Assembly: GCA_964016885.1 (NCBI GenBank)
Contig: OZ024742.1
Location: 89,528,001-89,592,000 of the forward strand
Source: Eledone cirrhosa
Taxonomy: Eukaryota
Length of the DNA: 64,000 bases
Direction of reading: 5' to 3'
The notes beneath the pieces were generated by a model. The model did not search any database, was not told the DNA's origin, and saw only the letters and a program-made list of their open reading frames with translations. Below, piece after piece: positions 1 to 63,215 of this stretch. Each line of letters opens with the position of its first letter. The stretch's first letter is position 1. The position numbers and the translations under genes are program-made.

Positions 1-183
1 CTTTTTAGCGATACTCCGGCCAAATATATATATATTGTTATACTTGGGGAGGGTCATATTTGTGTAATAATATTGCCAGAATTAATAACAGAACACACTC
101 AGAGAGAATATATATATATATTTATATATATATATATTTAATTATAATTATATATATATATCATTTTATGTATGTATATATAA

Positions 184-220
<37 letters not shown>

Positions 221-550
221 TATGTATATATATATATATATAATTATATGTATATATATAATTATATATATATATATATGAAAAGTTTATATTTAATTTG
301 TTGGGATACAACATGCAAAATATTTTTATAACTGATATAAAGCACTCAACAAATTATTGGAGTAAATATACAATATATTAACAAATGGTAACTATAATTA
401 TAAAACCATATTTATTTCATTATACATATTTAAAGGGCCACCAAAGCAAACTATGGTGCGCTTTCATCAGATAAAATATAATATAGGTTAGTTTTATAAA
501 TAAATATTGTCATACACATAAAAAAAAAAAATATATATATATATATATAC

Positions 551-907
551 AAATAATTACACACAAACAACGGACAACAGAGGCCACGTATTTTTATGTA
601 TATATATATATATATAATTACATATATAAAAAATTGCAGATGGGTAAATCTCCGGGTAACAGAATCCGTTGCTGAAGAGAGAGATGTAAGAGAAAATTTA
701 GAATGAGATATATAGTGTGTAGAGGAACGTAGAAAATAGCGTAAAAAATAAAAATAATAACACAAGATAGAGTTACCTTGGCAGACATTTAATTGTCCCT
801 ATATTTCGGATTTCGCATCCATCAACTGGGGCTTTTCCGAGGGGGAATGTTATCTGACGGAGAGGAACGGTACGTGGCCTCTGTTGTCCGCTGTTTGTGT
901 GTAATTA
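551..907. repeat. Small element bounded by ~38-bp inverted repeats, with a degenerate HHR-like motif (797-830, -)
   Basis: AATTACACACAAACAACGGACAACAGAGGCCACGTA (~554-590) is the reverse complement of TACGTGGCCTCTGTTGTCCGCTGTTTGTGTGTAATT (~870-906). Minus strand reads CCC-CAGUUGA-U-GGAU-GCGAA-AUCC-GAAA-UAUA-GGG, with two mismatches in the CUGANGA box. Confidence 0.5.
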
Positions 908-927
908 TATGTATATATATATATAAT

Positions 928-2112
928 TACAAAAAGTTATGAAACGAAAAGAGCTGTGTGGTTATTAAAACAACGTTTAGGATGGTGGTTAGGACTGAAC
1001 AGGAGGAGAAAGGAAGAAAGGTGTTTCCATCGTCAGCTGTAAATGTTTCCCGAACCGATGTTTCGGCGCTGAATTACAGGACATCGGTGTATTTCGGGTG
1101 CGCTTGATGCCTTTTATTAATAAAAAGGCCAGGTGGAAAAGGAGAGAGAAAGAGAGAAAAGGAGGAGAAAAAAAGGATAGAGAGAAGGAAAGAGAGGGAA
1201 GGAGGAAGAACAGGAGGGGATGAGGAGAGAGGAAGAGGGGGGGGGGCGAAAAAATAGGAAAGGAATAGGACAAAAAAGTGTACAGGTCCCATCGTGGGAA
1301 GACAGAGGTGAAAGAAACATGCAAAAAAGTAACCATGGAAAAATAGGGAAAGTAAGTTGTGGCCAACCTGGGAGACTTTGCCTGGGGGTCAGCTACAACT
1401 CAGAGCTGGTATAAGCGTGCTGCCTCTCACATAGACAGGAGAAAGTGAGAGAGAGACACGGGCAACCAAAAGTGAGGAGGACAAGGGAAAGGGAGATAAT
1501 CCAGAAGAGGTTTTTTTACAACGGTGGTAAAAACGTGCCGCAAAGATTGCGGACAGAGAGGCCACCACGGCACGTGTAAATATGTCAACAATCAAAACTG
1601 AGGAAAAACGAGAGTGAGGAAGAGAGGGGAAGAGTGAAGGGAGGATCTATGCGAAGTGTGGAGGGAACACAGATCGTTCAAAGCAGGTAGGGTCACAGCG
1701 GTAAATACAAAAAGTTATGAAACGAAAGAAATTGTGTGGTTACTAAAACAAGGTTTAGGATGGTGGTTAAGACGGAACAGGAGGAGAGAAGAAGAAAGGA
1801 GTTTCCATCGTCAGCTGTAAATGTTTCCCGAACCGAAGTTTCGGCGCTGAATTACAGGACATCGGTGTATTTCGGGTGCGCCCGAGGCCTTTTATTAATC
1901 AAAAGGCCAGGTGGAAAGGAGAGAGAACGAGAGACAAAAAGGGGAGAAAAAGGAGAGAGAAAAGGAAAAAGAGGGAAATGAGGAAGAACAGCGAGGGGGA
2001 GGAAGAAGTGGAGCAGGGAAAAGGCGAAAAAATAGGAAAGGAATAGGAGAAAAAAGTGTACAGATCCTATCGTGAGAAGACACAGGTGAAAGAAACATGC
2101 AAAAAAAGTAAT
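928..2112 (-). mobile_element. Tandem ~400-bp direct repeats (928-1331, 1706-2111), probably PLE pseudo-LTR-derived
   Basis: Two diverged copies offset by ~778 bp. The spacer on the minus strand gives weak GIY-YIG C-terminal-like remnants (YTCRGGLSVRNLC). Both copies carry HHR core boxes. Confidence 0.55.
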
Positions 2113-2122
2113 TTATATATGA

Positions 2123-3551
2123 CTAGCAGTTTTGCCCGGCGTTGCTCGGGTTTGTTCATTTGCAATGAAAGCTTTCATACAGGTAAACGTGGCTTAAAAG
2201 CGAATAAGCTTATCAATTAAGTGCATAAAGCAGTTGAAACGGTTATTAAAAGTTACGAACCAATTAGCATTTTGGACAATCAATGATGGGTTAATAATCT
2301 TCCAATAGCGAATTTAGCAGACCAAGGTTGCAAGCTGGTGGCCCTGATACGGCTGGGTGTCAGATCTATCCGCCATGGGTGACCCTACCAGGAAATAATT
2401 TTCCAGATGGCATAACTCCAACACCTCCAACACCTGCACCAACATCTATAGCACCTCGTTGTAGACGATATTGCGTGTCATCACTTGAGCAGTGTAAGCA
2501 AAAATTCTATTCCTGCTCCCTACGCGGGAATAGGCAACATAAAGTTGGGCATGGGAGAAGCATCGCTCCCCCAAATGGATGCCCGCCACCGACAATGTTT
2601 GCCCTTGTGACTTATTAATGAACATGGCAAAACATGGTCTCACCGGGAATTAGGATCGCCGGAAATCGAACGGGATATCTGACACCGGGGGGAAATGGTT
2701 CATCCTTACAGTGTGTTCGGTAGAATTGCCAGAAGTACAACACTATGGGTGTTGTCATATTAATATTTAACCAATTAAAGTCGTAAAAAATAAATAATTT
2801 AAACATTCCGATTCATATGTCTATATCATTAATCTGTTATATGAAGTGTTATTTTGCGGGTTGTTATTTGCAATAAGCCGATTTAAAAAGCCCCCGAAAA
2901 CCGTATGTCAATAAAGAACTCCAATGGCTCCCCCATTGGTTAAATTATAGAGAGGGGGAATAATCTATTATAGAGAGAGAGAAGAGCAACGAAGAGAGTA
3001 AAACTAAGAAACTATAGGGAGATGTGTAAAACAGTGTTGTCTTATAGAGAGTCAAGAGCGACAGAGAGAGTAAAGTAGTTAAATATTAGAGAGGGGGAAT
3101 AATCTATTATAGAGAGAGGGAAGAGCGACGGAGAGAATAAAGCTGTTTGTTGTTGTATAAATTGATGTGTTGTTTCGTTTTCAAAATTTGTGTCGCGTTG
3201 ATAGGGTAGTAGAGAGAGGCATTAACCTTTTAAAGAGAGTTGCAGAGGGGAGTAGAGGGAGGGATGAATCTTTTAAAGAGAGTTGCAACATGTATGTAGT
3301 TTAATAGATTGTTGAGGGTAGTAGAGAGAGGCATTAAGCGTGTAAGAGAGGGTGTTACAACATGTATTTAGTTTTATCGATTTTTTTTCTTGAAGCAGGA
3401 AATGCTGTGTAAAGTTTATTACGCGATGACCATCGCTGGTACATTTGGAGCACATTGGACAAAAAATCATCAAAATTGGTAGAGAAATGTGGAAATGCAT
3501 AAAAATCATACACACACAGATACAGACATCTTTGTTTTATATATAGAGAGA
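2123..3551 (-). mobile_element. Non-autonomous (internally deleted) Helitron
   Basis: Minus strand has a 5' TC start (TCTCTCTATATATAAAAC) preceded by A, and a 3' hairpin CCCGAGCAACGCCGGG then CTAG followed by T. It retains the PIF1 helicase C-terminus (RPCFAMFINKSQGQTL...HAQLYVAYSRVG, 2446-2643). The 3' ~580 bp match the Helitron at 59355-63215. Confidence 0.9.
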
Positions 3552-3554
3552 TTA

Positions 3555-3867
<313 letters not shown>

Positions 3868-5000
3868 TATTTTCCATTGTATTGTAATATAAATATTACA
3901 CACAGTAGATTGACAGCTCACGTAGAGTTTGCTCGGCGGTTCCAGTTGTAGTTCCAAAAGCAATCCGGAGAAAAATAGAAAGATTTGAATGGATACAGTT
4001 TAGTTGAAAGGAATTTATTGACACGTGTTTCTATAACAGTTACATTACCTGAAAACAGCTGCTATCTACAAAGTTTTAGTTATGCAGACATTCAATATTT
4101 CAATGTTATTATTTACTGTCATTTCATCAGAATAATATTATTGAGGACCTATTTGGTTTTGATAGAGAATATTAGGAGGGAGGGGTGAAGTTGTTAGAAG
4201 AATAATTGAGGGAGTGGTTTGTTGATAGCAGTGAGAATTTTTGATGGCAGTGAGTAATTAGATTCCCATCTGTTGTTTTGACATTTTTATAGAATATATT
4301 ATTGGTTATTTTTCTAAATTTATAGAAGGATTAGAGATAGTAAAGATATGCGTGGTTGGTTTTGTGTTTGCACTTAATTAACATTCAGACTTAAATTTTT
4401 CTTTCAAGTGTACGTATCCTTTCACCCACGCATTCACACACAAATATATTTGCACACCTCTACAAAATACATATACTCACATTCACCTATTCATACTTAC
4501 ATACATATACACATGCATACATATATATATACACACATGTATTCGTGTACATACATACGCGTTCATGTGTATACATTTTCATACTCAACTTATCTTTATA
4601 TACACACGCATAGACACACACATATATACATACATACTCTAGTCTATGTGTACACATATACATATACATACACATCTATACATATATATATATATACACA
4701 CATATATATATACATATATATATATATATAAGCACTTTAATACATGAATACACTTACATCCTACTATACACATCAAACATATATATATATTTACTTATTT
4801 ATATACATTTTCACATATATATACATACTTATGGACGTTTTTAGACACATTCATTATCGCATATTTGCACCTATTTTCATCAGCATATCTTTCCATTATT
4901 AGTGTGGTAATTTAAGGTTATTAATATATGTTGAGAAGAGATTGTTTTTATATTTTTCTAACTAGAATGAGGTTTATATAGTTGGGGGGATGTCTCTCTT

Positions 5001-5450
5001 TTATGTAATATTCGGCTTGTAGTGGGAAAAAAGGGTTTTAGTTCTGTGAAGGCAGAATAATGTTCGTTCAATTCTGTTATTCAGCAATTTCTTCTTGTGT
5101 GTGATTATGTAATAAATCTCAAGATTACATAATTTGCAGAAATTTTGGCTCCTGGAAAAGCTTTGGGTTTTAGCTAATTTCTCCCATTTTAGAGTAAACT
5201 TTTGATCGCTATCCCTGAGCGTCCAAGCTTTTTCTGCTAAAGTTGTTACATTTCTTTGGCTCTGGTGTTTTATTGAGTAAGAATGCCTATATAATCGAGA
5301 TTTAAACGATGTTGCCGTTGATCCCACGTAATACCACTCGTTGCCTCCGGATTTAATGGTACACTTATAAATAATTTTTTTTTCCAGGCAGTTATTGCCG
5401 AGGGGGCAGTTGTCAGGATAGGTGCAGTTACAGTTGTGTACGTTGGGTTT
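5001..5450 (-). mobile_element. Penelope-like element 3' fragment, GIY-YIG endonuclease (Naiad-type CxCx5C linker)
   Basis: Minus-strand translation CNCTYPDNCPLGNNCLEKKIIYKC...YVGSTATSFKSRLYRH...CKLCNLEIYYI...LLNNRIE...CLHR. Confidence 0.85.
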
Positions 5451-6159
5451 TCTCTGGAGTAGTATTGCGGACGAACTTATTTTCAGTTTAAGTCATTTAT
5501 TTGCTTACAATTGTTTCCTCCAAATTCCGGACAGCATGATATGTTAATTAAGAACCAACTGGATACCGTTTATAGCTTGACTATATGCTGAAACACTGCG
5601 AATTATACGATAGTCGCATGTTCTCTATATATATATTGCATCTCATGGATTATGTGAGTGGTGGTGTGAGCAAGGACAGTGGTACGACCTTGCCTAAGAT
5701 ACAATAAGGTTTATAGTATGTTGAAGGTTTTTGATATTTTGGTGTTTCCCCGCATCCGAGACTGTATATCATACAGATGTATGAGAATAAATGACTTAAT
5801 AATTCAGCCTATATTATAAGATCGATTGCCTGCTTCAACTGCCTGACCCTGCAAATATCATTCTGACGCACTCTAATCATGTATAGATAAGACAAGCTTG
5901 CATGCTACACGGGAGATTGCTTCATGCACTGACTACTCTAAGCTTTCCTCTTGCTTTATCTTCATAGACTACCAACGCTTCATGTTTATCTTTATTTTCA
6001 CTCTTGCTTTTATTTTATTTTATTTTTATCATGTAACACTTTATATGTAAATTGCCATGCTATTTCATTTGATGAATGTCACCCCACTGTTGATCAATAT
6101 GCGCATATGTTTTATGTGTCTCTTGGGTTGAAAAGGAGGTCAAGTATGTTATAAATAAC

Positions 6160-12000: not shown

Positions 12001-12039
<39 letters not shown>

Positions 12040-12042
<3 letters not shown>

Positions 12043-13115
12043 TAAGTATACGTACATACATATATGTATACAGACGCACAGTTGTATGAATATATATACA
12101 TACATGCACACATATATGTATGTACGTATGGATTTACCGAACATTTATTATAATGCTCGTTTTTTTTTGTAAACAAACAAACATCCCGAATTAAGCCGTA
12201 CAGTGTTTAGCAACCATCGTTGCCCTTTTGTTCAACACTGACAAAGGAACGATGTACTAGTTTCAAGCTTATTAGCTATCGTCAGCATCGTATACCTTCC
12301 TGCCAGATGATTGAACGTCTGAATATTCATACTTTCCTTATGCATATTAACGGCTGAGCAGCCTAATTTGCATATCGAGTGAGTTAATTGGCCGGGCGCA
12401 CCGAAAACGATAAATGGAAAAAATGAAACGAAATTTCATTTCTCACTCTTAGTGCGGCTCTTATTTACATATAAGTATGTATACGTACATACTTATATGT
12501 ATACAGACGTACAGTAGTATGTATGTATATACATACATGCACACATATATATATGTACGTATGGATTTACCGAACATTTATTATAATGCTCGGTTTGTTT
12601 GTAAACAAACAAACATCCCGAATTAAGCCGTACAGTGTTTAGCAACCATCGTTGCCCTTTTGTTCAACACTGACAAAGGAACGATGTACTAGTTTCAAGC
12701 TTATTAGCTATCGTCAGCTCCGTATACCTTCCTGCCAGATGATTGAACGTCTGAATGTTCATTCTTTCCTTATTTCTATTAACGGGTGAGCAGCCTAATT
12801 TGCATATCGAGTGAGCTAATCGGCCGGGCGCACCAAAAACGATAAACGGAAAAAATTAAACGAAATTTCATTTCTCACTCTTAGTACGGCTGTTACTTAC
12901 ATATAAGTATGTATACGTACATACATATATGTATACAGACGTACAGTAGTATGTATATATATACATACATGCACACATATATATATGTACGATGGATTTA
13001 CCGAACATTTATTATAATGTTCGGTTTGCTTGTAAACAAACAAACATCCCGAATTAAGCCGTACAGTGTTTAGTAACAGCCGTACTAAGAGTGAGAAATG
13101 AAATTTCGTTTCATT
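12040..13115 (-). repeat. ~432-bp tandem repeat (2.4 units plus short inverted end) carrying type I hammerheads; retrozyme-like
   Basis: Units at ~12040-12465, ~12470-12895 and a partial ~12897-13075. 13081-13113 is an inverted copy of the unit end. An HHR motif is present in each full unit. Confidence 0.85.
12250..12290 (-). ncRNA. Minimal type I hammerhead ribozyme
   Basis: CGAUG-CUGACGA-UAGCU-AAUA-AGCUU-GAAA-CUAG-UA-CAUCG, with GUA cleavage triplet and ACUAGU palindrome. The second copy (12682-12722) has a damaged stem I. Confidence 0.8.
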
Positions 13116-15427: not shown

Positions 15428-15758
15428 CAAATAGTCTATTGCCCTATATAGCTGAATACAATAAATATAATCTGAGTTTTTGAATATTAATAATAATGTT
15501 CGATTCGGTTGCTGTTATGCAAAAATCCTCTTTAAAGCCATGTCAGTAGAATTTACCCGCCATTCCTGCTCTTGTGTTGGCATGTAAACTAAACTGCAGA
15601 CACTAATGTTTCTGGCTGATTACTCTTCATCAGTAGAGTATACTGCCAACTGTCAGAGCTATTGAAAATATATGATTTATCTATCTATCTATCTATATAT
15701 CCATATATATACATACATACATATATATATTTATGTATATATATATATATATATATAT

Positions 15759-17655
15759 ACTGTTATACTTTGGGAGGGTCATGTTGCCAATAAGAAACAC
15801 ACGCACCAGTTGCTTTCACTTCAATTTATTATAATAAATTTATAAATTTAGCAAGTTATAAATTTCTGGTTGGTTGGTTGGTTCCACAACCAAATAGTTG
15901 TTTATATATTGTCAAAGTTCTTTCGTCACACATTCTGTGACATCTTCAGTGATTGGGGATTCTTTTCTTTCTTTTTTGCCTCTCCTTTGTTCTGTTCTAC
16001 GCCATTTTGTTTCTGTGTGTCTGGTGTGTGCTCAGTCTGCGGATGCGCCACATCCGGGTGTCTGTGTGTGTTTGTATTCGTTTATTTATTTGTTTATTTA
16101 CATGTTACCGGTTGGTTGTTTGTTCTATGTGCGTGTGTGTTTTCATTTTGTCCTTAATTGTAAGTTGTGATGTTGCTGTTCTACTCATATTTTCTATTTA
16201 ATTTTGGTTGTAATTCTTTTATGTTTATTGCCTCTGTGATTTGTCTAAACATTGCGTCTTTTCTGTGTGTAGATTCTATTTTTATTTCTATGTTCTCTAA
16301 TTTAACCTTATATTCTATTTTAGCATGTTGGTATAGTACAGATGATTCTTTACTATCTTGAATGTCTCGCCAGTGTTCATTTATCCGTTCCTCTACACTA
16401 CGAGCTGTCTCACCTATCTACACTATATTTTTGTCTCTACATTGTTCTCCAGTACATCTTATGCTATATACTACATTTCTAGTTTTACAGTTAATATGGG
16501 GGCTTATTTTACAGGTTATACATTTCTTATCTATACAGGGGAGTCTTTGAAAAAGGGTATGTCTTGCTAATAAGTGTTTTTACGGAGGTACCTGGTCTTT
16601 CTACTATCTTAATATTGAGTTTATGTTTATCTAGGGCCCTTCTAAATGTGTAAGCTAATTCACCTCTAGGGGTTGTATCGATGAACATTACTCTCTGGTA
16701 TTTATTGCTATCATACCATGAGTTTATTCTATTAGCCTTATTCCTAGTTCTTTCTATTCTATTCCAAAATGTGCTCCTATACAAGGGGCCGGTCCCATTT
16801 GTGTCATTATTTACCATTTTTTCCCATCTGGTTCTGGTTCCTCTATACACTCTGATTTTATCTCTCTGATTGTAACCAGAGAACTGCATACGGTGGATGA
16901 AGTGATTTATGTGTCTCTCTAGTTCTTCGGGGTTGCACATGCGGGACAGGTTTCTCATCACCCGTACCAAATCCGCAATCACTATGTTGACTTTGGTATG
17001 GTCCGAAACAGCTGAGTTTCGGTGGATCAGATGTTTGGAAGTCATGGGTTTGGCATAATGGGAATGGAGCATTTGTTTTTTGTTATTAATGGTATCTAAC
17101 CAGAGCTCTGTGTCTAGTACAGGTAATCGATGGTTGGGGTGTTTACTTGGGTAGTCTATATTAACTCTAATACTCTGGTGGATGGAGTTAGCTATTTGCT
17201 GGATGCTTTCCATTGTGTTTTTCTCTAATTCCTGACTGTTCTCTAGTGGGATGTCTTAACTACGATGTTTATATCATCAACGTAGCGGGAGTACATTACC
17301 AGGGTTAAGGGGTATTCTAATTGTTCTTTAAGTTTAAGTTTAAGTCTACTGTCCCGCCATACCATGAATAAGTTAGCTATGTCGCCTGCAATGCTGACAC
17401 CAATGGCTGCTCCTTCCTCTTGGGCATATGTTTTTCCATTAAATTTGAACATATGTTCCTTAAGGGTTAGCTTTATGCTTGCCCCTACCGCATGTGCAAT
17501 CATTTTCTTCAATTCATCGTGGTTTTCGGGTGTCCGTATGGCTCTGGTCCACCAATTCCATCTATTTGTGTGGGTTTCCTTGGTAGGTGGTCTGCCCTTG
17601 CTGGTCTTGTAGGGCACAGGTTGCTAAGGTCATATGTGTCTAGGTAATTATTACT
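15759..17655 (-). mobile_element. Inverted 3' duplicate (~1.9 kb) of the adjacent Penelope-like element
   Basis: Reverse complement of ~19270-21184. ORFs 17243-17617 and 16527-17213 match 19356-20228 (YSRYVDD). GIY-YIG reads NVVYSIRC...VYIGETARSVEERINEH. HHR at 15911-15953. Confidence 0.95.
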
Positions 17656-17659
17656 CTAG

Positions 17660-20600
17660 GTAAGTTTGAGTAGGATCTACAAATATATACGGCAACACAG
17701 CAATAGATCCTGATGAATTATCTGTATTACAGCTACCGCCGAAATTTGCGACATTCAAGAAGGTAAATATGATTAGTTGTCTGTCAGAAATAGAAAAGTC
17801 ATTTACAAAATTACGTTGAAGCCTCAAAAACAAAAACAAAAACAAAAGTAACAACATACGCACACACATATACAACACACATCCCAACAACAACAGACAC
17901 ACAGACACAAACAACAATAACAACAACACACACACCAACAATAATAACATACTCAGAAACAACAACAACAGACACGCAGACACAAACAACAATAACAACA
18001 CACACAACAATAATAACACACACGGAGACAACAACAACAACACACATCAACAACAGCACACATCAACAACAACAACACACACACATTCAATGCCTGTCAC
18101 CACCACCACAATCTTAACAAACACACAGACACAGAAAACAAGTAATGACAGTAGCACAGAAATCACAGAAATAAGGGAAAGTAATAGGATTAAAAGGAGA
18201 AGGGAGACTATGGACAAACAAAATAACCAAGACGAACACACAGACACACAAAATAGAGTAGATAATAACAATGAGCCAGTGGAAAGAGGCAGGAGTAATA
18301 ATGAGAGACATAGAAACAACCATGAGGCTGTTGGTGGAAATAGAAATAGAAACAACACAACTAACAATAACAATAGCACTAGTACACATAACGCAGCAGC
18401 CTGGAACTCTACTTTTTATAATCCCTCCGATAAGTCGTTCGACCTGCGACGAGTCCAGGCCACGACTTTACCATTTAACAAACGCACGCAATTTCCGTCG
18501 CAGGTCGATGAACAAACAGAACCACAATTTAGTATAGCTAGATCCGGACTTAGAAATATTATAGAACAGTATAGCAAGAAGCATAATAGAATGGAGGCCC
18601 AGCAACTGGGAGAAAAATCTGCAAATGGCTTGCGTAAGCTCATGCAGCGCTCGCGTAATGGAGAGCTAGCATGCTTTCCAACAGACAAGTCTGGCAGAAT
18701 GTCGGTTGACAGCCTGCCAAACTACATCCAGGCAATGCAACCCCACATCACTGACACAAGAGAGGTAACACCACAGGAGCATGAGGATAGAGAAAAAGCC
18801 CTCAATGCCCATATGGTGATGTGGGCGAATATAATGCAGCCCAACAAAAGGACTGCCAACAACTTCCAGGCCTGGAACAATGACGTGCCGATCGTTGTAT
18901 GGGCTTCGAAAAGACCATAAAACGGGCAGTGACCCTGTCACGGGACCACCAACACGGCCAGTCTGTGGAGCTAACATTGCTAGTAACTACAGACTGTCCT
19001 ACTTCCTCTCCCTGATCATACGCCCCATCATTGAAATGTCCCCATATGTATGCGACAGCACGGAGGACCTCCTCAGCAGAATCGGCGAGAGTAACCGATC
19101 TAGGGACCTAACAAACTGCATAATAGGTAGTATGGATGTTGTGTCCCTGTATCCATCTATTGACGTGGATTTTGCTGTGGAGAAATGCGTAGAAATGATC
19201 AGTGAGAACAATGTTGAGTTCCGTGGGATTGATACCAGTGAGCTGGGACACCTACTCAAACATACCTATAGTAATAATTACCTAGACACATGTGACCTTA
19301 GAGAAACCTGTGCCCTACAAGACCAGCAAGAGGCAGACCACCTACCATTACCTCAATGGCCAAGAAAACCCACACAGATAGTTGGAACGGGTGGAGCAGA
19401 GCCATACGGACACACGAAAACCACGATGAACTGAAGAAAATGATTGCACTTGCGGTAGGGGCCAGCATAAAACTAAACGTTAAGGAAAATATGTTCAAAT
19501 TTAATGGAAAAACATATGCCCAAGAGGAAGGAGCAGCCATTGGTGTTAGCATTGTAGGCGACATAGCTAACTTATTCATGGTATGGTGGGACAGTAGACT
19601 TAAACTTAAACTTAAAGAACAATTAGAATACCCCTTAATCCTGGTAATGTACTCCCGCTACGTTGATGATATAAACATCGTAGTTAAGACATCCCCACTA
19701 GAGAACAGTCAGGAATTAGAGAAAAACACAATGGAAAGCATCCAGCAAATAGCTAACTCCATCCACCAGAGTATTAGAGTTACTATAGACTACCCAAGTA
19801 AACACCCCAACCATCGATTACCTGTACTAGACACAGAGCTCTGGTTAGATACCATTAATAACAAAAAACAAATCCTCCATTCCCATTATGCCAAACCCAT
19901 GACTTCCAAACATCTGTTCCACCGAAACTCAGCTGTTTCGGACCATACCAAAATCAACATACTGATTGCGGATTTGGTACGGGTGATGAGAAACGTGTCC
20001 CGCATGTGCAACCCCGAAGAACTAAAGAGACACATACAACACTTCATCCACCGTATGCAGTTCTCTGGTTACAATCAGAGAGATAAAATCAGAGTTTATA
20101 GAGGAGCCAGAACCAAATGGGAAAAAATGGTAAATAATGACACAAATGGGACCTGCCCCTTGTATAGGAGCAAATTTTGGAATAGAATAGAAAGAACTAG
20201 GAATAAGGCTAATAGAATAAACTCATGATATGATGGCAATAAATACCATAGTGTAATGTTCATCGATACAACCCCTAGAGGTGAATTAGCTTACAAATTT
20301 AGAAGGGCCCTAGATAAACATAAACTCAATATTAAGATAGTAGAAAGACCAGGTACCTCCGTAAAAACACTTATTAGCAAGACATACCCTTTTCAAAGAC
20401 ACCATGTATAGATAAGAAATGTATAACCTGTAAAATAAGCCCCCATATTAACTGTAAAACTAGAAATGTAGTATATAGCATAAGATGTACTGAAGAACAA
20501 TGTAGAGACAAAAATATAGTGTAGATAGGTGAGACAGCTCGTAGTGTAGAGGAACGGATAAATGAACACTGGCGAGACCTTCAAGATAATAAAGAATCAT

Positions 20601-21184
20601 CTGTACTCTACCAACATGCTAAAATAGAACATAAGGGTAAATTAGAGAACATAGAAATAAAAATAGAATCTACACACAGAAAAGAAGCAATGATTAGACA
20701 AATCACAGAGGCAATAAACATAAAAGAATTACAACCAAAATTAAATAGAAAATATGAGTGGAACAGCACCATCACAACTTACAATTAAGGACAAAATGAA
20801 AACACACACGCACATAGAACAAACAACCAACCGGTAACATGTAAATAAACAAATAAATAAACGAATACAAACACACACAGACACCCGGATGTGGCGCATC
20901 CGCAGACTGAGCACACAACACACACACAGAAACAAAATGGCGTAGGACAGAACAAAGGAGAGGCACACAAACAAAGAAAAGAATCCCCAGTCACTGAAGA
21001 GGTCACAGAATGTGTGACGAAAGAACTTTGACAATATATAAACAACTATCTGGTTGTAGAACCAACCAACCAACCAGAAATTTATAAATTCCCAAATTTA
21101 TAAATTTATTATAATAAATTGTAGTGAAAGCAACTGGTGCGTGGGTTTCTTATTGGCAACATGACCCTCCCAAAGTATAACAAT
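17660..21184 (+). mobile_element. Near full-length Penelope-like retroelement (RT + GIY-YIG), inactivated
   Basis: PTDKSGR, LYGLRKDHK, PTRPVCG, SMDVVSLYPSID, QEEGAAIG, YSRYVDD, LPVLDT motifs, then C-terminal GIY-YIG. Frameshifts near 18890 and 19310-19360; stops at 20226 and ~20523. Confidence 0.95.
20990..21032 (+). ncRNA. Minimal type I hammerhead ribozyme in PLE pseudo-LTR
   Basis: GUCA-CUGAAGA-G-GUCAC-AGAAUGU-GUGAC-GAAA-GAAC-UU-UGAC. Homologues at 15911-15953 (-) and 47378-47420 (-). Confidence 0.75.
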
Positions 21185-21240
21185 ATCGGTTTCAACACAC
21201 GTTTTCAGATAAAGAATCTTGCTAAACAAATTCAGAAACG

Positions 21241-27958: not shown

Positions 27959-29606
27959 TTCTGCCATGTATATGAAGAAATAGAAGGCAATAAATAGAGA
28001 ATAAATGAAAAAGTAATGAAAAAGTAATGAAAAATGAAAATGGAAAATGAAAAATGAAAATGAAAAGTGAAAAATAAAAATGAAGATTCAAATAAAATAA
28101 GATAAAATGTGTGTGTGCATAACCCAAGGTCAGAAATATGTTGGATAAAGTTGTAGGAGGAACAAGATAGTAAAAGTATAAAACGAAATAGGATAATCAA
28201 ATAAAATGTGTGTATTTTAACCAATCTCAACTTAAATATAAATATAAGGTGATAAAGTGAAGAAAACAGAAAACAAATAACAAATGAATAATGAGAAATC
28301 AAAAATGAAAAATCAAAAATCAAGTAAATTAAAATGTGTGTGTGTTATAAAGATGTTGGCCAAATTATAAAGGCAGTGTCAGAATCAATCTCTAGGCTAT
28401 CATGGTGTCTGCTCAGCCTAGGTTGGTCCCTATGGCTTGAGGGGAGTTCCCAACCTATGGTGTTGTTACTGCCCATATAGCTTGAGGGAGGTGTGGCCGA
28501 GAGGTCTCTACATGTTCTGGAGATTCCCTATAGTTTGAGGGGAGTTCACATCTTATTGTGTTGCTACTGTCCATATATCTTGAGGAAGGTCTCGACCCTG
28601 AGGTGTCTGCATGTCCTGAAGAAGTCAGTTCTGAGGTTTATCAAGCCGCTTCCACCACTTAATATCTCGAGGGTCTCGTTCAGACATAGTTTGCATATGC
28701 AAGATCCCGCTTTATCGGGTGGTACTTTCCTGATTATGGACCAGGCCAGAAAGTACGGGGTCCTGTCCAGCTTAAGCTTCCAGATCAGGTCGGAGAGAGC
28801 CGTACTTTTCCGTTTGGCCTCCTTATTGAAGGAATGGCGATGGTTATACCAGCGGTCTTTAAAGCTCGTTGATGTGGCTCCTATGTAGAGGTGTTCGAAG
28901 TTGGGGGGTTTAACCCTACAACCGTATACTAGGTCCATCTTAAGGCATTCATTACCAAGGGGTCATGATTCGGGGTTTCTGCAGTTGCAGAGGGTAGTCG
29001 ATCTCTGCGTGCCTAGATTGGGGTTCCGTTAGATGTTACATGGTGGTCTTCCCCCAGGCACGGTGGGGGTCCCCGGGTTTGTTTGGGTTTCTTGGGTGGG
29101 CACTGGGTACCCCTTTCTCCCCTTTCACATGGTTCTGCTGAGTGCTTGTATTGCCATCTTCTGGCTGTGTGTGGTTTTTAAGCCTACTCCTGTTGATGCT
29201 AGCTATGTGTTCGGCCAGATTTCTCGTGGTGGAATACGAGAGCTTCATAGTGTGTCTGTTGAAGATCTTGTGGTATCTATGGTCCCTTGGGAAGAATTTA
29301 TAACACACACACATTTTATTTGATTATCCTATTTCGTTTTATTCTTTTACCATCTTGTTCCTCCTACCACTTTATCCAACATATTTCTGACCTTGAGATT
29401 GGTTATAGCACACACACATTTTATCATATTTTATTTGAATCTTCATTTTTATTTTTCACTTTTCATTTTCATTTTTCATTTTCCATTTTCATTTTTCATT
29501 ACTTTTTCATTACTTTTTCATTAATTTTTCATTTATTCTCTATTTATTATTTATTTTCTGTTTTCTTCATTTTATTGCCTTCTATTTCTTCATATACATG
29601 GCAGAA
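27959..29606. repeat. Inverted repeats (~27959-28212 / 29305-29606) flanking a PLE endonuclease fragment
   Basis: CTGCCATGTATATGAAGAAATAGAAGGC... versus ...GCCTTCTATTTCTTCATATACATGGCAG, with shared (TGAAAA)n arrays. Confidence 0.9.
28564..29300 (-). mobile_element. Penelope-like (Naiad-type) linker and GIY-YIG fragment
   Basis: KFFPRDHRYHKIFNRHTMKLSYS...CNCRNPES*PLGNECLKMDLVYGC...YIGATSTSFKDRWYNHRHSF...CKLCLNE...LINLRTDFFRTCRH. Confidence 0.9.
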
Positions 29607-44609: not shown

Positions 44610-45550
44610 TTAAAACAATGAAATAAAAGATCATGTTATTATAGATATACATCACTGCTTTACGAGCGTTTCTAGATGGTCATAATACATTGTATCTATA
44701 CTTATACACAGTTATTGATCTATGTAAGTTTACAAACTATCAGATAGAGAGAATATTTACTTACATGCATATCACCAGCTGTTTTCAAAAGCAATAATAA
44801 TTTTATTCAATAATAATTTTACTCAGAATTAGTATTATGTCCATATTTGGAGGTAGTTAAAGAACTAACGAATCAAATTGTTTTTTTCATATGGTGTTAA
44901 AACGAAAAGTAATACACTTTAGTTGAGGTCATGACCCTTTGAAAGAAGTGGTTGAAAGGTGTTAGTAGAGATGGCATAAAAATCTATTAGGAAGGAAGTG
45001 GATTGTCAAACTGATAGTTGAATGTATCTTGTATAGTGAATTTAAAAGGAATGTCAAAATAATTGGTGATTAGTGTTGAATTGAGTTTTAAGGTGAATAT
45101 AAATATATTTTGATATTCCTTTTAAATTCACTAAGATACATTCAACTGTCAGTTTGACATCCCCTTCCTTCCTAATAGATTTTTATGCCATTTCTACTAT
45201 CACCTTTCAACCATTCCTTTCAAAGTGTCATGAACGCAACTAAAGTGTATTACTTTTCATCTTAACACCATATGAAAAAAACAATTTGATTCGTTAGTTC
45301 TTCAACTACCTCCAAATATGGACATGATACTAATTGTGAGTAAAATTAATATTGAATAAAATTATTATGCTTTTGAAAACAGCTGGTGATATGCATGTAA
45401 GTAAATATTCTCTCTATCTGATAGTTTGTAAACTTACATAGATCAATAACTGAGTATAGATACAATGTATTATCACCATCTAGAAACGATCGTAAAGCAG
45501 TGAAGTATATCTCTAATGAGTTCATTTTTTATTTCATTGTTTTAACTTAT
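44606..45550. repeat. Long foldback: ~430-bp inverted arms (44606-45050 / 45118-45550)
   Basis: TAAGTTAAAACAATGAAATAAAA... versus ...TTTTATTTCATTGTTTTAACTTA, with colinear reverse-complement identity throughout. Starts at (TA)n. 45525-45645 recurs at 50105-50225. Confidence 0.92.
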
Positions 45551-48756: not shown

Positions 48757-50088
<1,332 letters not shown>

Positions 50089-62300: not shown

Positions 62301-63215
62301 GCGAAAGAGCCATCCTTGCTCCGTAAAATCCCATGGTTAATTTTATTAACGAGCAGCTAATTAAGAAGATTCCCGGTAATAAGCACATCTTCAAATCTAT
62401 CGACCTGACGTCAGACCCCGACAATATCGTTAATTATCCGGTTGAGTTATTAAATTCCCTTGAGCCCCCAGAGCTCCCACCTCACATTCTTAAGCTTAGG
62501 GTTGGCTGTCCAATTATGCTAATAAAGAACATGCGTCCACCAAAGCAGTGCAACGGTACTCGCATGGTCGTCAAGTCACTGACGCCCCAATTGGTTGAGG
62601 CCACCATTGTAACGGGGTGCGGGAGAGGGGAGAATGTTCTCATTCCAAGGATGAACCTTTTCCCCTCGGCGTCAGATATCGCGTTCTATTTCCGGCGAAT
62701 CCAATTCCCGGTGAGACCATGTTTTGCCAAGTCACAAGGGCAAAAATTGTCGGTGGCGGGCATCCATTTGGGAGTACCATGCTTCGCCCATGGCCAAATT
62801 TATGTTGCCTGTTCTCGCGTAGGGAGCAGGAATGGATATTTTGCTTACACTCCTCAAGGGATGACACCCAATATCGTCTACAAATAGGTGCTATAGATGT
62901 TGATGCAGGTGTTGGAGGTGTTGGAGCAATGCCGTCTAGAAAACTATTTCCTGGTAGGGTCACGCTTGGCGGACAGATCTGACACCCAGCTGCATCAGGG
63001 CATCTTGCAACTTTGGTCTGCTAAATTCGGTATTGGAAGGTTATTAACCCATCATTGATTGTCCAAAATGCTAATTGGTTCGTAACTTTTAATAACCGGT
63101 TCAACTGCTATATGTACTTAATTGATGAGCTTATTCGCTTTCAAGACACGTTTACCTGTATGTAACTTTTCATAGAAAATGAACAAACCTGAACAACGCC
63201 GGGCTAAACTGCTAC
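59355..63215 (+). mobile_element. Helitron with decayed Rep-PIF1 helicase
   Basis: 5' A|TCTATATATATAAA. Rep motifs EWQKRGLPPAYILIWL and KSIKDICKYVNKG; VDNRWVVPY; helicase FLDAPG, IVWDECTMAHK, DFRQTL, CNGTR, QFPVRPCFA, SQGQ, HGQIYVACSRVG. 3' hairpin followed by CTAC|T (CTAG in the 2123 copy). Confidence 0.95.
61176..61362 (+). mobile_element. tRNA-derived SINE nested in the Helitron ORF
   Basis: Same family as 30920-31103; flanked by the direct repeat ATTATCTACAACAGGGC (61162-61178, 61360-61376). Confidence 0.93.

Follow-up and report, generated by a model that had tools for sequence, protein, structure and literature searches.

Introduction

Cleavage by the hammerhead ribozyme takes place 3′ of H17, with G12 acting as the base and G8 as the acid, while its metal site is formed by the A9 phosphate and G10.1. 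One extra base at the junction of A9 and G10.1 is tolerated in a viroid hammerhead.

The closest described relatives of the motif reported here are the permuted hammerheads of Eckert et al. (2023; PMC10085705), whose scheme comprises six orders of three blocks that are taken as uninterruptible. The order cleavage site, GAAA, CUGANGA is termed 'type SGC'; it was described there from metatranscriptomes only, with cleavage in vitro at 0.007–0.19 per minute. In this type stem II directly follows CUGANGA with one or two inserted bases at most, and the corresponding descriptor requires CUGAUGA followed by a stem II of three pairs or more. The geometry of some SGC ribozymes was flagged as puzzling by the same authors. 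Type CSG is known from two metagenome sequences (PMC10085705).

Among Penelope-like elements (PLEs), Naiads target (TA)n and were described as being without canonical hammerheads, although in some of them a core or 'half core' outside all descriptors was noted (Craig et al., 2021; PMC8557442). An unexplained 'HHR_core' and eight 'HHR_half_core' cases are listed for them in that paper, and the absence of hammerheads from Naiads has been used to argue that ribozymes may be dispensable passengers of PLEs. Targeting of the (TA)n type is not unique to Naiads, as Neptune elements also target microsatellites (PMC8557442). Minimal PLE hammerheads are of type I with a vestigial stem III, lie in pseudo-LTRs, and have been proposed to cut as two copies in a way that spares the unit circle (PMC4209133). 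Non-LTR retrozymes, which are defined by type I hammerheads, consist of non-coding head-to-tail units with one hammerhead each, are linked to PLEs, and were shown to form circular RNA (PMC7229834; bioRxiv 10.64898/2026.07.22.740005); their units span 51–972 bp according to the preprint. As far as their methods are described, both of these studies searched for canonical or minimal motifs only, the preprint with type I models. A circular-template model has been published for PLEs and retrozymes, with a host ligase as the favoured agent of retrozyme circularisation. Hammerhead variants with additional helices are mentioned in PMC13725137, which cites Weinberg 2015 and PMC10162972 (no such variants appear in the examined text of the latter), and other insertions into the hammerhead core are listed in PMC3088659. 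A search of openly available papers and of preprint main texts yielded nothing on permuted Naiad hammerheads or on a break of the core at the A9/G10.1 junction, and the term 'Type-SGC' only in Eckert et al. (2023).

Results and Discussion

A non-coding Penelope-like insertion

The window, i.e., the whole analysed stretch of 64,000 nucleotides from the genome of Eledone cirrhosa (contig OZ024742.1, positions 89,528,001–89,592,000), contains on its minus strand, at 924–2111, an insertion of about 1.5 head-to-tail, non-coding Penelope-like units with its 3′ end at about 924 and a truncated 5′ end at about 2111. A single unit comprises 778 nt (924–1701, minus strand). The original prediction had spoken of a 400-bp repeat; the 410-bp direct repeats at 924–1332 and 1702–2111 are, however, the overlap of the 1.5 units. 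At the 3′ end of the element lies a (TA)n target (900–923), and a TA run also ends most of the sampled loci.

In the 3.0-Gb genome of E. cirrhosa, which holds 804 candidates for the motif region, a near-full 778-nt unit was present at all 23 dispersed loci that had been chosen by the internal part of the unit. An additional head-to-tail part was found upstream of the unit in 19 of the 23, and an inverted piece in two. At its 3′ end, which lies at a constant place about 155 nt past the predicted cut, the unit passes into (TA)n. Among 30 loci examined for their 3′ ends, 21 end in a TA run (seven being duplicates of one insertion) and three run into another unit, the remaining six being without the anchor of this count. 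The 5′ ends, for which 30 loci were chosen by their 3′ part, are scattered over 24–871 nt upstream of the predicted cut in 29 cases; no pile-up at the cut site was seen, with a single end among the 30 falling within 5 nt of that site. A constant 3′ end, 5′ ends at varied positions and incomplete tandems together make up the anatomy of a non-autonomous Penelope-like element. The PLE-derived context proposed in the original prediction is supported by the (TA)n target, the partial tandems (pseudo-LTRs) and the inverted pieces, all of which occur in the family of the window element.

No long plausible open reading frame was found in the 778-nt unit, and an ORF with N-terminal GIY-YIG, CxC linker and C-terminal reverse transcriptase (RT) is absent from it. 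Being non-coding, the unit could belong to the Naiads only as a non-autonomous derivative, and the window element is likely a non-autonomous retrozyme of the Naiad type. Copies of its family (family 1) differ by about 4% from their majority sequence. A second, older non-coding family with a 690-nt unit (family 2) is homologous to it along its length and shares the (TA)n target and the same ribozyme with a putatively split core.

The ribozyme core

Each of the two motif copies lies on the minus strand, copy 1 with a full extent of 1024–1139 and copy 2 with 1802–1917. In copy 1, block S (1074–1088) contains the 3′ strand of stem III, the GUC triplet and the 5′ strand of stem I, with the cut being predicted by analogy between 1080 and 1079. 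Block G (1054–1069) contains the 3′ strand of stem II, GAAA and the 5′ strand of stem III, and the last block (1024–1042) the 3′ strand of stem I, CUGACGA and the 3′ strand of a helix IV that replaces stem II at this place. The equivalent blocks of copy 2 are 1852–1866 (predicted cut 1858/1857), 1832–1847 and 1802–1820. Stem III of copy 1 has 8 bp (1088–1081 with 1061–1054) and stem I has 6 bp (1079–1074 with 1042–1037); H17 is C1080 of the GUC triplet, GAAA occupies 1064–1061 and CUGACGA 1036–1030. All of this agrees in sequence and coordinates with what had been predicted, as does the near-identical second copy, which lies at a distance of 778 nt (H17 at 1858) and has one mismatch, in the third pair of stem III. 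The range originally assigned to the motif was too short, as the ribozyme reaches about 50 nt further in the 5′ direction.

The conserved parts C3–A9 (CUGANGA), G12–A14, A15.1–U16.1 and H17 are all present, and they follow each other as site, GAAA and CUGANGA, which is not the circular order of types I, II and III. A descriptor for this order matched once in the 64 kb (copy 1) and never when the full stretch was dinucleotide-shuffled 200 times, matches on either strand being counted. The non-circular order claimed for the core is supported; copy 2 fails this descriptor through its single stem III mismatch. It was also correctly foreseen that standard descriptors miss the motif: there is no Rfam hammerhead match at E up to 10 in 1–6000, and the SGC descriptor of Eckert et al. 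fails, only two pairs being possible in a downstream stem II. Two alternative cores, with a GAAA right after CUGACGA or with the GAAA at 1099–1096, were rejected by eye for their poorer stem III.

All 14 core positions, including G10.1 and C11.1, are kept in 15 of 23 family copies sampled without bias. In the family the core is flanked by stems I, II and III with the pair G10.1–C11.1, if the upstream strand described below is counted, and both window copies are damaged: in copy 1, G10.1 (1104) is changed to A and stem II is without its core-proximal pair, while copy 2 has an intact stem II and the mismatch in stem III.

A probable upstream strand of stem II

The original prediction had named a stem II of about 2 bp (GG/CC) as its weak point. 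This reading is probably wrong. Upstream of the cleavage strand lies a sequence (1882–1878 in copy 2, its counterpart in copy 1 being 1104–1100) that pairs perfectly, over 5 bp, with the bases immediately before GAAA, G10.1 (1882) standing opposite C11.1, and the calculated duplex energy of this pairing is −8.4 kcal/mol versus +0.8 kcal/mol for the downstream GG/CC pairs. The 5′ strand of stem II is therefore probably the upstream one, and the hammerhead core is probably split between A9 and G10.1.

Further helices accompany this strand. Helix IV pairs its 5′ strand (1912–1917; copy 1, 1134–1139) with the tail after CUGACGA and is part of the minimum free energy (MFE) structure. Hairpin V (1886–1908; copy 1, 1108–1130) has 8 bp and ends 3 nt before G10.1. 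Helix T, whose 5′ strand at 1872–1876 pairs with 1827–1831 (copy 1, 1094–1098 with 1049–1053), connects the sequence that follows stem II with the one that leads into stem I; its length is 5 bp in family 1, in family 2 it has 7 bp and contains an internal loop, and it is found in the MFE structures of copy 1 and of a family-2 copy. Helix T can also be read as a continuation of stem III across a bulge, which is only a different name for these pairs. ViennaRNA predicts helix IV and hairpin V in copy 2, and hairpin V, helix T and stem III in a family-2 copy; in an intact copy the pair probability of hairpin V is 0.96–1.0. Stem II itself reaches a probability of only 0.02 in the pseudoknot-free ensemble, in which a local hairpin masks its 5′ strand. 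Five bases at the start of the region of this strand (1872–1885) are identical to the downstream strand of helix T (1827–1831, minus strand). Owing to this identity the local hairpin can form first, and it appears possible from the sequence that it is later displaced, which would amount to a co-transcriptional switch.

In an alignment of 31 rows (15 of family 1, 15 of family 2 and one outlier, taken from 115 and 29 distinct copies), stem II is paired in 96.7% of the cells. Five helices, helix T not being counted, are paired in 93.9% of 770 cells compared with 37.6–47.2% for slid partners, a lenient control as the structure was derived from the same aligned sequences. Helix IV shows one clean compensatory change between the families, a pair that is A-U in 15 of the 31 rows (family 1) and U-A in 14 (family 2), and one of its bases is the one that a downstream GG/CC stem would leave as a bulge before GG. 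One of two pairs that seemed to have changed on both sides is an artefact of the misalignment of one locus, L090, by MAFFT, so that the compensatory changes of L090 were assessed by eye only. When the 80 nt upstream in one copy were shuffled, a stem II of at least 5 bp led by G10.1 arose in 88 of 3000 trials, and such a stem together with an 8-bp hairpin in none of the 3000. The full descriptor was passed by 68 distinct genomic copies, 67 of them with at least 5 bp in stem II, and failed by both window copies, copy 1 being without G10.1.

With type SGC (HRIMA-1 and variants; PMC10085705) the window motif shares, as far as that type is described, the ring order S-G-C, the full core, a link of 3–4 nt from stem I to stem II, and a helix that joins the free strands of stems I and II and corresponds to helix T. 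It differs in the upstream position of the 5′ strand of stem II and in helices IV and V at the A9/G10.1 junction. Plain type CSG, as published, has neither helix IV nor helix V, and its link between A9 and G10.1 is unbroken; in terms of topology, opening a C-S-G ring within an inserted helix IV gives the window motif. The claim of a possibly undescribed architecture thus has to be divided: the S-G-C order is already known and was validated as type SGC, whereas the split of the core by an upstream stem II, in an animal transposon, looks undescribed.

Permuted hammerheads at the ends of published Naiads

File S5 of PMC8557442 was searched for core strings, and the matches among its 54 Naiad consensi were then parsed by eye. 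This search misses motifs broken across lines, and Naiad names were assigned from the order of the headers, so that all counts in this section are to be read within these bounds. The same six-helix split layout, with different stem sequences, ends at least 11 of the 54 consensi: Bfor, 3_Chem, Amil, Aacu, Anas, 2_Movir, Plae, EuTe, Obim, Ovul and Esco. These represent eight independent lineages in five phyla and come from ctenophores, cnidarians, acanthocephalans, crustaceans and cephalopods. Their stem II has 4–6 bp, for example GGCUCC/GGAGCC in Amil, GGCCCC/GGGGCC in Plae and GACGCC/GGCGUC in EuTe, and is led by G opposite the base before GAAA, which is C except in Esco. Hairpin V lies 0–3 nt before stem II, and helices IV and T also occur, built from unrelated sequences. 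Minor deviations are single mismatches in Aacu, a slight decay in Esco and a stem I of 2 bp in Bfor. Across the eight lineages the catalytic bases and both core-proximal pairs are kept and the stems vary, with N7 and H17, the free positions, being those core positions that change. The layout and the bases flanking the core in the window motif are common to Naiad_Obim and Naiad_Ovul.

Other consensi parsed by eye show related orders. Plain type CSG with all stems and a fourth helix was recognised in six nematode consensi (one Pristionchus, three Nbra, Hcon and Asuum), and the order S-G-C in five from arthropods, of which Smim and 4_Dst have long linkers and Ptep, 2_Dst and 3_Dst gave no parsed stem II. 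Among the matches listed, the reversed ring order occurs in at least 22 of the 54 consensi. In 1_Dst the core parts stand in the order S-C-G, and a complete motif was absent from the whole sequence of Omin and from 2_Skow. Six of the eight published 'HHR_half_core' cases (3_Nbra, Smim, 3_Dst, 4_Dst, Ovul and Esco) could be parsed as permuted hammerheads, with Parc being uncertain.

Relation to Naiads and other PLEs in the Eledone genome

The window element shares with Naiads, as published, the (TA)n targeting, the partial tandems, the inverted pieces and a motif about 100 nt from the 3′ end, and it differs from them in having no ORF. Its assignment to Naiads, which we regard as likely, is based on the layout of the ribozyme and the anatomy of the insertions rather than on a shared ORF. 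Three decayed genomic pieces (L089, L090 and L095) have linkers in the style of the Octopus Naiads; of these, L090, a motif-bearing remnant without an ORF, by eye resembles the tail of the Obim and Ovul Naiads and shows compensatory changes in stems I and III relative to family 1. A search of the genome for the RT motif of the common Naiad type returned no match, and one for the cephalopod-type motif four decayed matches. By protein match, 73 Naiad-type RT remnants were found, with open frames of at most 223 aa. Decayed RT remnants from this genome are most like the cephalopod Naiad consensi. At 44 loci around RT remnants there was neither a motif within 3 kb downstream nor any similarity to the 778-nt unit, and ten aligned loci of one old Naiad subfamily had no core at their 3′ ends.

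A larger and younger PLE family (26,756 candidates; 87–95% protein identity in the best 150) has a C-terminal GIY-YIG-like domain, and seven of eight sampled copies carry a type I motif in canonical order that resembles the Hydra-clade motifs described by Craig et al. (2021; PMC8557442). Its similarity to the unit does not go beyond low-complexity DNA, so that a role of this family as the helper is not supported, and these searches revealed no other helper element.

Conservation and alternative explanations

An alignment of the family had been suggested as a check on the motif; this is a weak test, as the copies decay neutrally. Changes in family 1 are not clearly rarer in the core than in the flanks (9/322 versus 82/2178 changes, p 0.52; without CpG sites 3/253 versus 79/2090, p 0.03), as expected under neutral decay, and no clear difference was seen for the stems either (p 0.45). 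Between families 1 and 2 the ribozyme windows have an identity of 0.65–0.71 and are surpassed by the region near the 3′ end of the unit, with 0.80–0.82. The covariation on which the check was also to rest is found between families and species. A chance resemblance within a repeat family would have in its favour that the descriptor was written after the motif had been seen and that the genomic copies are mutually dependent. Against it stand the 200 window shuffles without a match and the 3000 upstream shuffles without stem II plus hairpin V, as well as the controls with reversed patterns, which gave no match compared with 24, 12 and 208, the last number being the exact genomic matches to a 26-base stretch of the core. 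Moreover, in a metagenome scan with a loose pattern, none of 80 among the matches listed (of 120 stretches) forms the stems. Chance is already largely refuted by the covariation across phyla, and we regard it as very improbable.

A different objection concerns the split. The motif might be a type-SGC hammerhead of the ordinary kind whose stem II is minimal, GG pairing with CC after a one-base bulge and the upstream helices being an off-state or a folding aid. A U between A9 and G10.1 is also carried by SGC-2 (PMC10085705 supplement), GG follows after one base in families 1 and 2 and the Octopus Naiads alike, and engineered miniribozymes are reported as active with a single G10.1–C11.1 pair (PMC544870). 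However, Amil, Plae, EuTe and 3_Chem have, in their published consensi, no reachable G after CUGANGA and a perfect, G-led upstream partner opposite C11.1; the supposed bulge base covaries with an upstream base; and the motif does not comply with the published SGC descriptor in either CUGAUGA or the downstream pairs. This reading thus appears unlikely. About equally unlikely, in our judgement, is that a hammerhead-derived fold has lost most of its cleavage in family 1 and provides a PLE RT with a signal for recognition or priming. Such a role would fit with the 29 of 30 insertions that cross the cut site, with the poor cleavage in vitro that has been described for metazoan PLE hammerheads (PMC4209133), with the competing hairpin that masks stem II, and with some Naiads that thrive with no core seen; yet it would hardly lead one to expect catalytic bases and core-proximal pairs to be kept over eight lineages while the stems and, within the core, the free positions N7 and H17 vary.

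Possible mechanism of cleavage and insertion

On balance we consider it quite probable that the window holds 1.5 units of a 778-nt, likely Naiad-type PLE, each bearing a complete hammerhead core that is predicted to fold with a break between A9 and G10.1 and that likely cuts after GUC. From 5′ to 3′ the predicted order is helix IV, hairpin V, 5′ strand of stem II, helix T, cleavage strand, GAAA strand, partner of helix T, CUGANGA strand and partner of helix IV. The nested helices IV, V, T and III would fold first. For activation, the loop of stem III with its strands of stems I and II would next have to dock on the multiloop in which G10.1 and CUGANGA lie. With the break lying 3′ of A9, the A9 phosphate of the metal site and G10.1 both keep their places.

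Tandem read-through transcripts might be cut at each site into unit-length RNA, the ends of which could be joined by a host ligase or by reversal of the reaction; the latter would be possible as the products would stay associated through about 24 bp in four helices. A PLE RT may then prime about 155 nt past the cut at a nicked (TA)n and copy the circle over a variable distance. Copying of a circle would give what is observed, a 3′ end at one place, 5′ ends at varying distances and tandems that are incomplete. Insertions whose 5′ ends run through the cut site are what a circular or uncut template predicts, and a lack of cleavage also fits them.

For docking in family 1, a second copy or melting of helix T is slightly favoured over a plain monomer. 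By rough geometry (2.8 Å per pair, about 6 Å per free base), helix T and stem III would form one rod that is not foldable back intact, the top of stem II lying an estimated 43 Å or so from the end of stem III and helix T with its links spanning about 30–35 Å. The same estimate suggests that Bfor, 3_Chem and Obim have room to fold alone. A requirement for two copies, a topology also considered in the original prediction, would cut tandem precursors and spare the unit circle, and it would thereby fit with insertions running through the site. Such two-copy-only activity would be shared with the minimal PLE hammerheads of PMC4209133; the window element differs from these in its long stem III and in that any dimer would arise by docking of loops through stems I and II. 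From the published non-LTR retrozymes it differs in the topology of its ribozyme.

More tentatively, and with rather less than even confidence, we propose that the Naiad clade as a whole uses non-circularly permuted hammerheads (type CSG in nematodes, type SGC in some arthropods and the split core in others), and that the split core is built by docking of loops between two copies and serves to count copies. If this is correct, the split core would be a seventh natural hammerhead topology, and permuted hammerheads would for the first time have a defined role in animal genomes. The predicted split by itself would break the assumption of an uninterrupted CUGANGA block in the scheme of six permutations. 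Non-circular permutations would move from unknown viroid-like RNAs to high-copy animal transposons, and the permuted forms would offer a direct answer to the reported lack of canonical hammerheads in Naiads. As standard descriptors and Rfam miss these forms, genome-wide counts of hammerheads are likely too low.

Other features of the window

Beside the TA target of the element, 55-bp inverted repeats at 536–590 and 871–925 enclose about 280 bp in a MITE-like arrangement. Directly past its 5′ end lies a Helitron-like piece (2123–2650), in which a minus-strand frame at 2446–2649 resembles the C-terminus of a helicase (weak Pfam match); an inverted copy of this piece is located near 62729–63214. 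The neighbourhood 501–2200 recurs at seven sites of the contig between 89.39 and 90.27 Mb, with a spacing of about 140–160 kb and an identity of 92–97%, and represents a large tandem segmental duplication. Long inverted repeats at 15757–21186 (arms of up to about 1.8 kb), 27972–29554, 44783–45379 and 48760–50054 are fold-back or inverted insertions of the PLE type. At 12029–13032 a sequence of about 432 bp is repeated in tandem.
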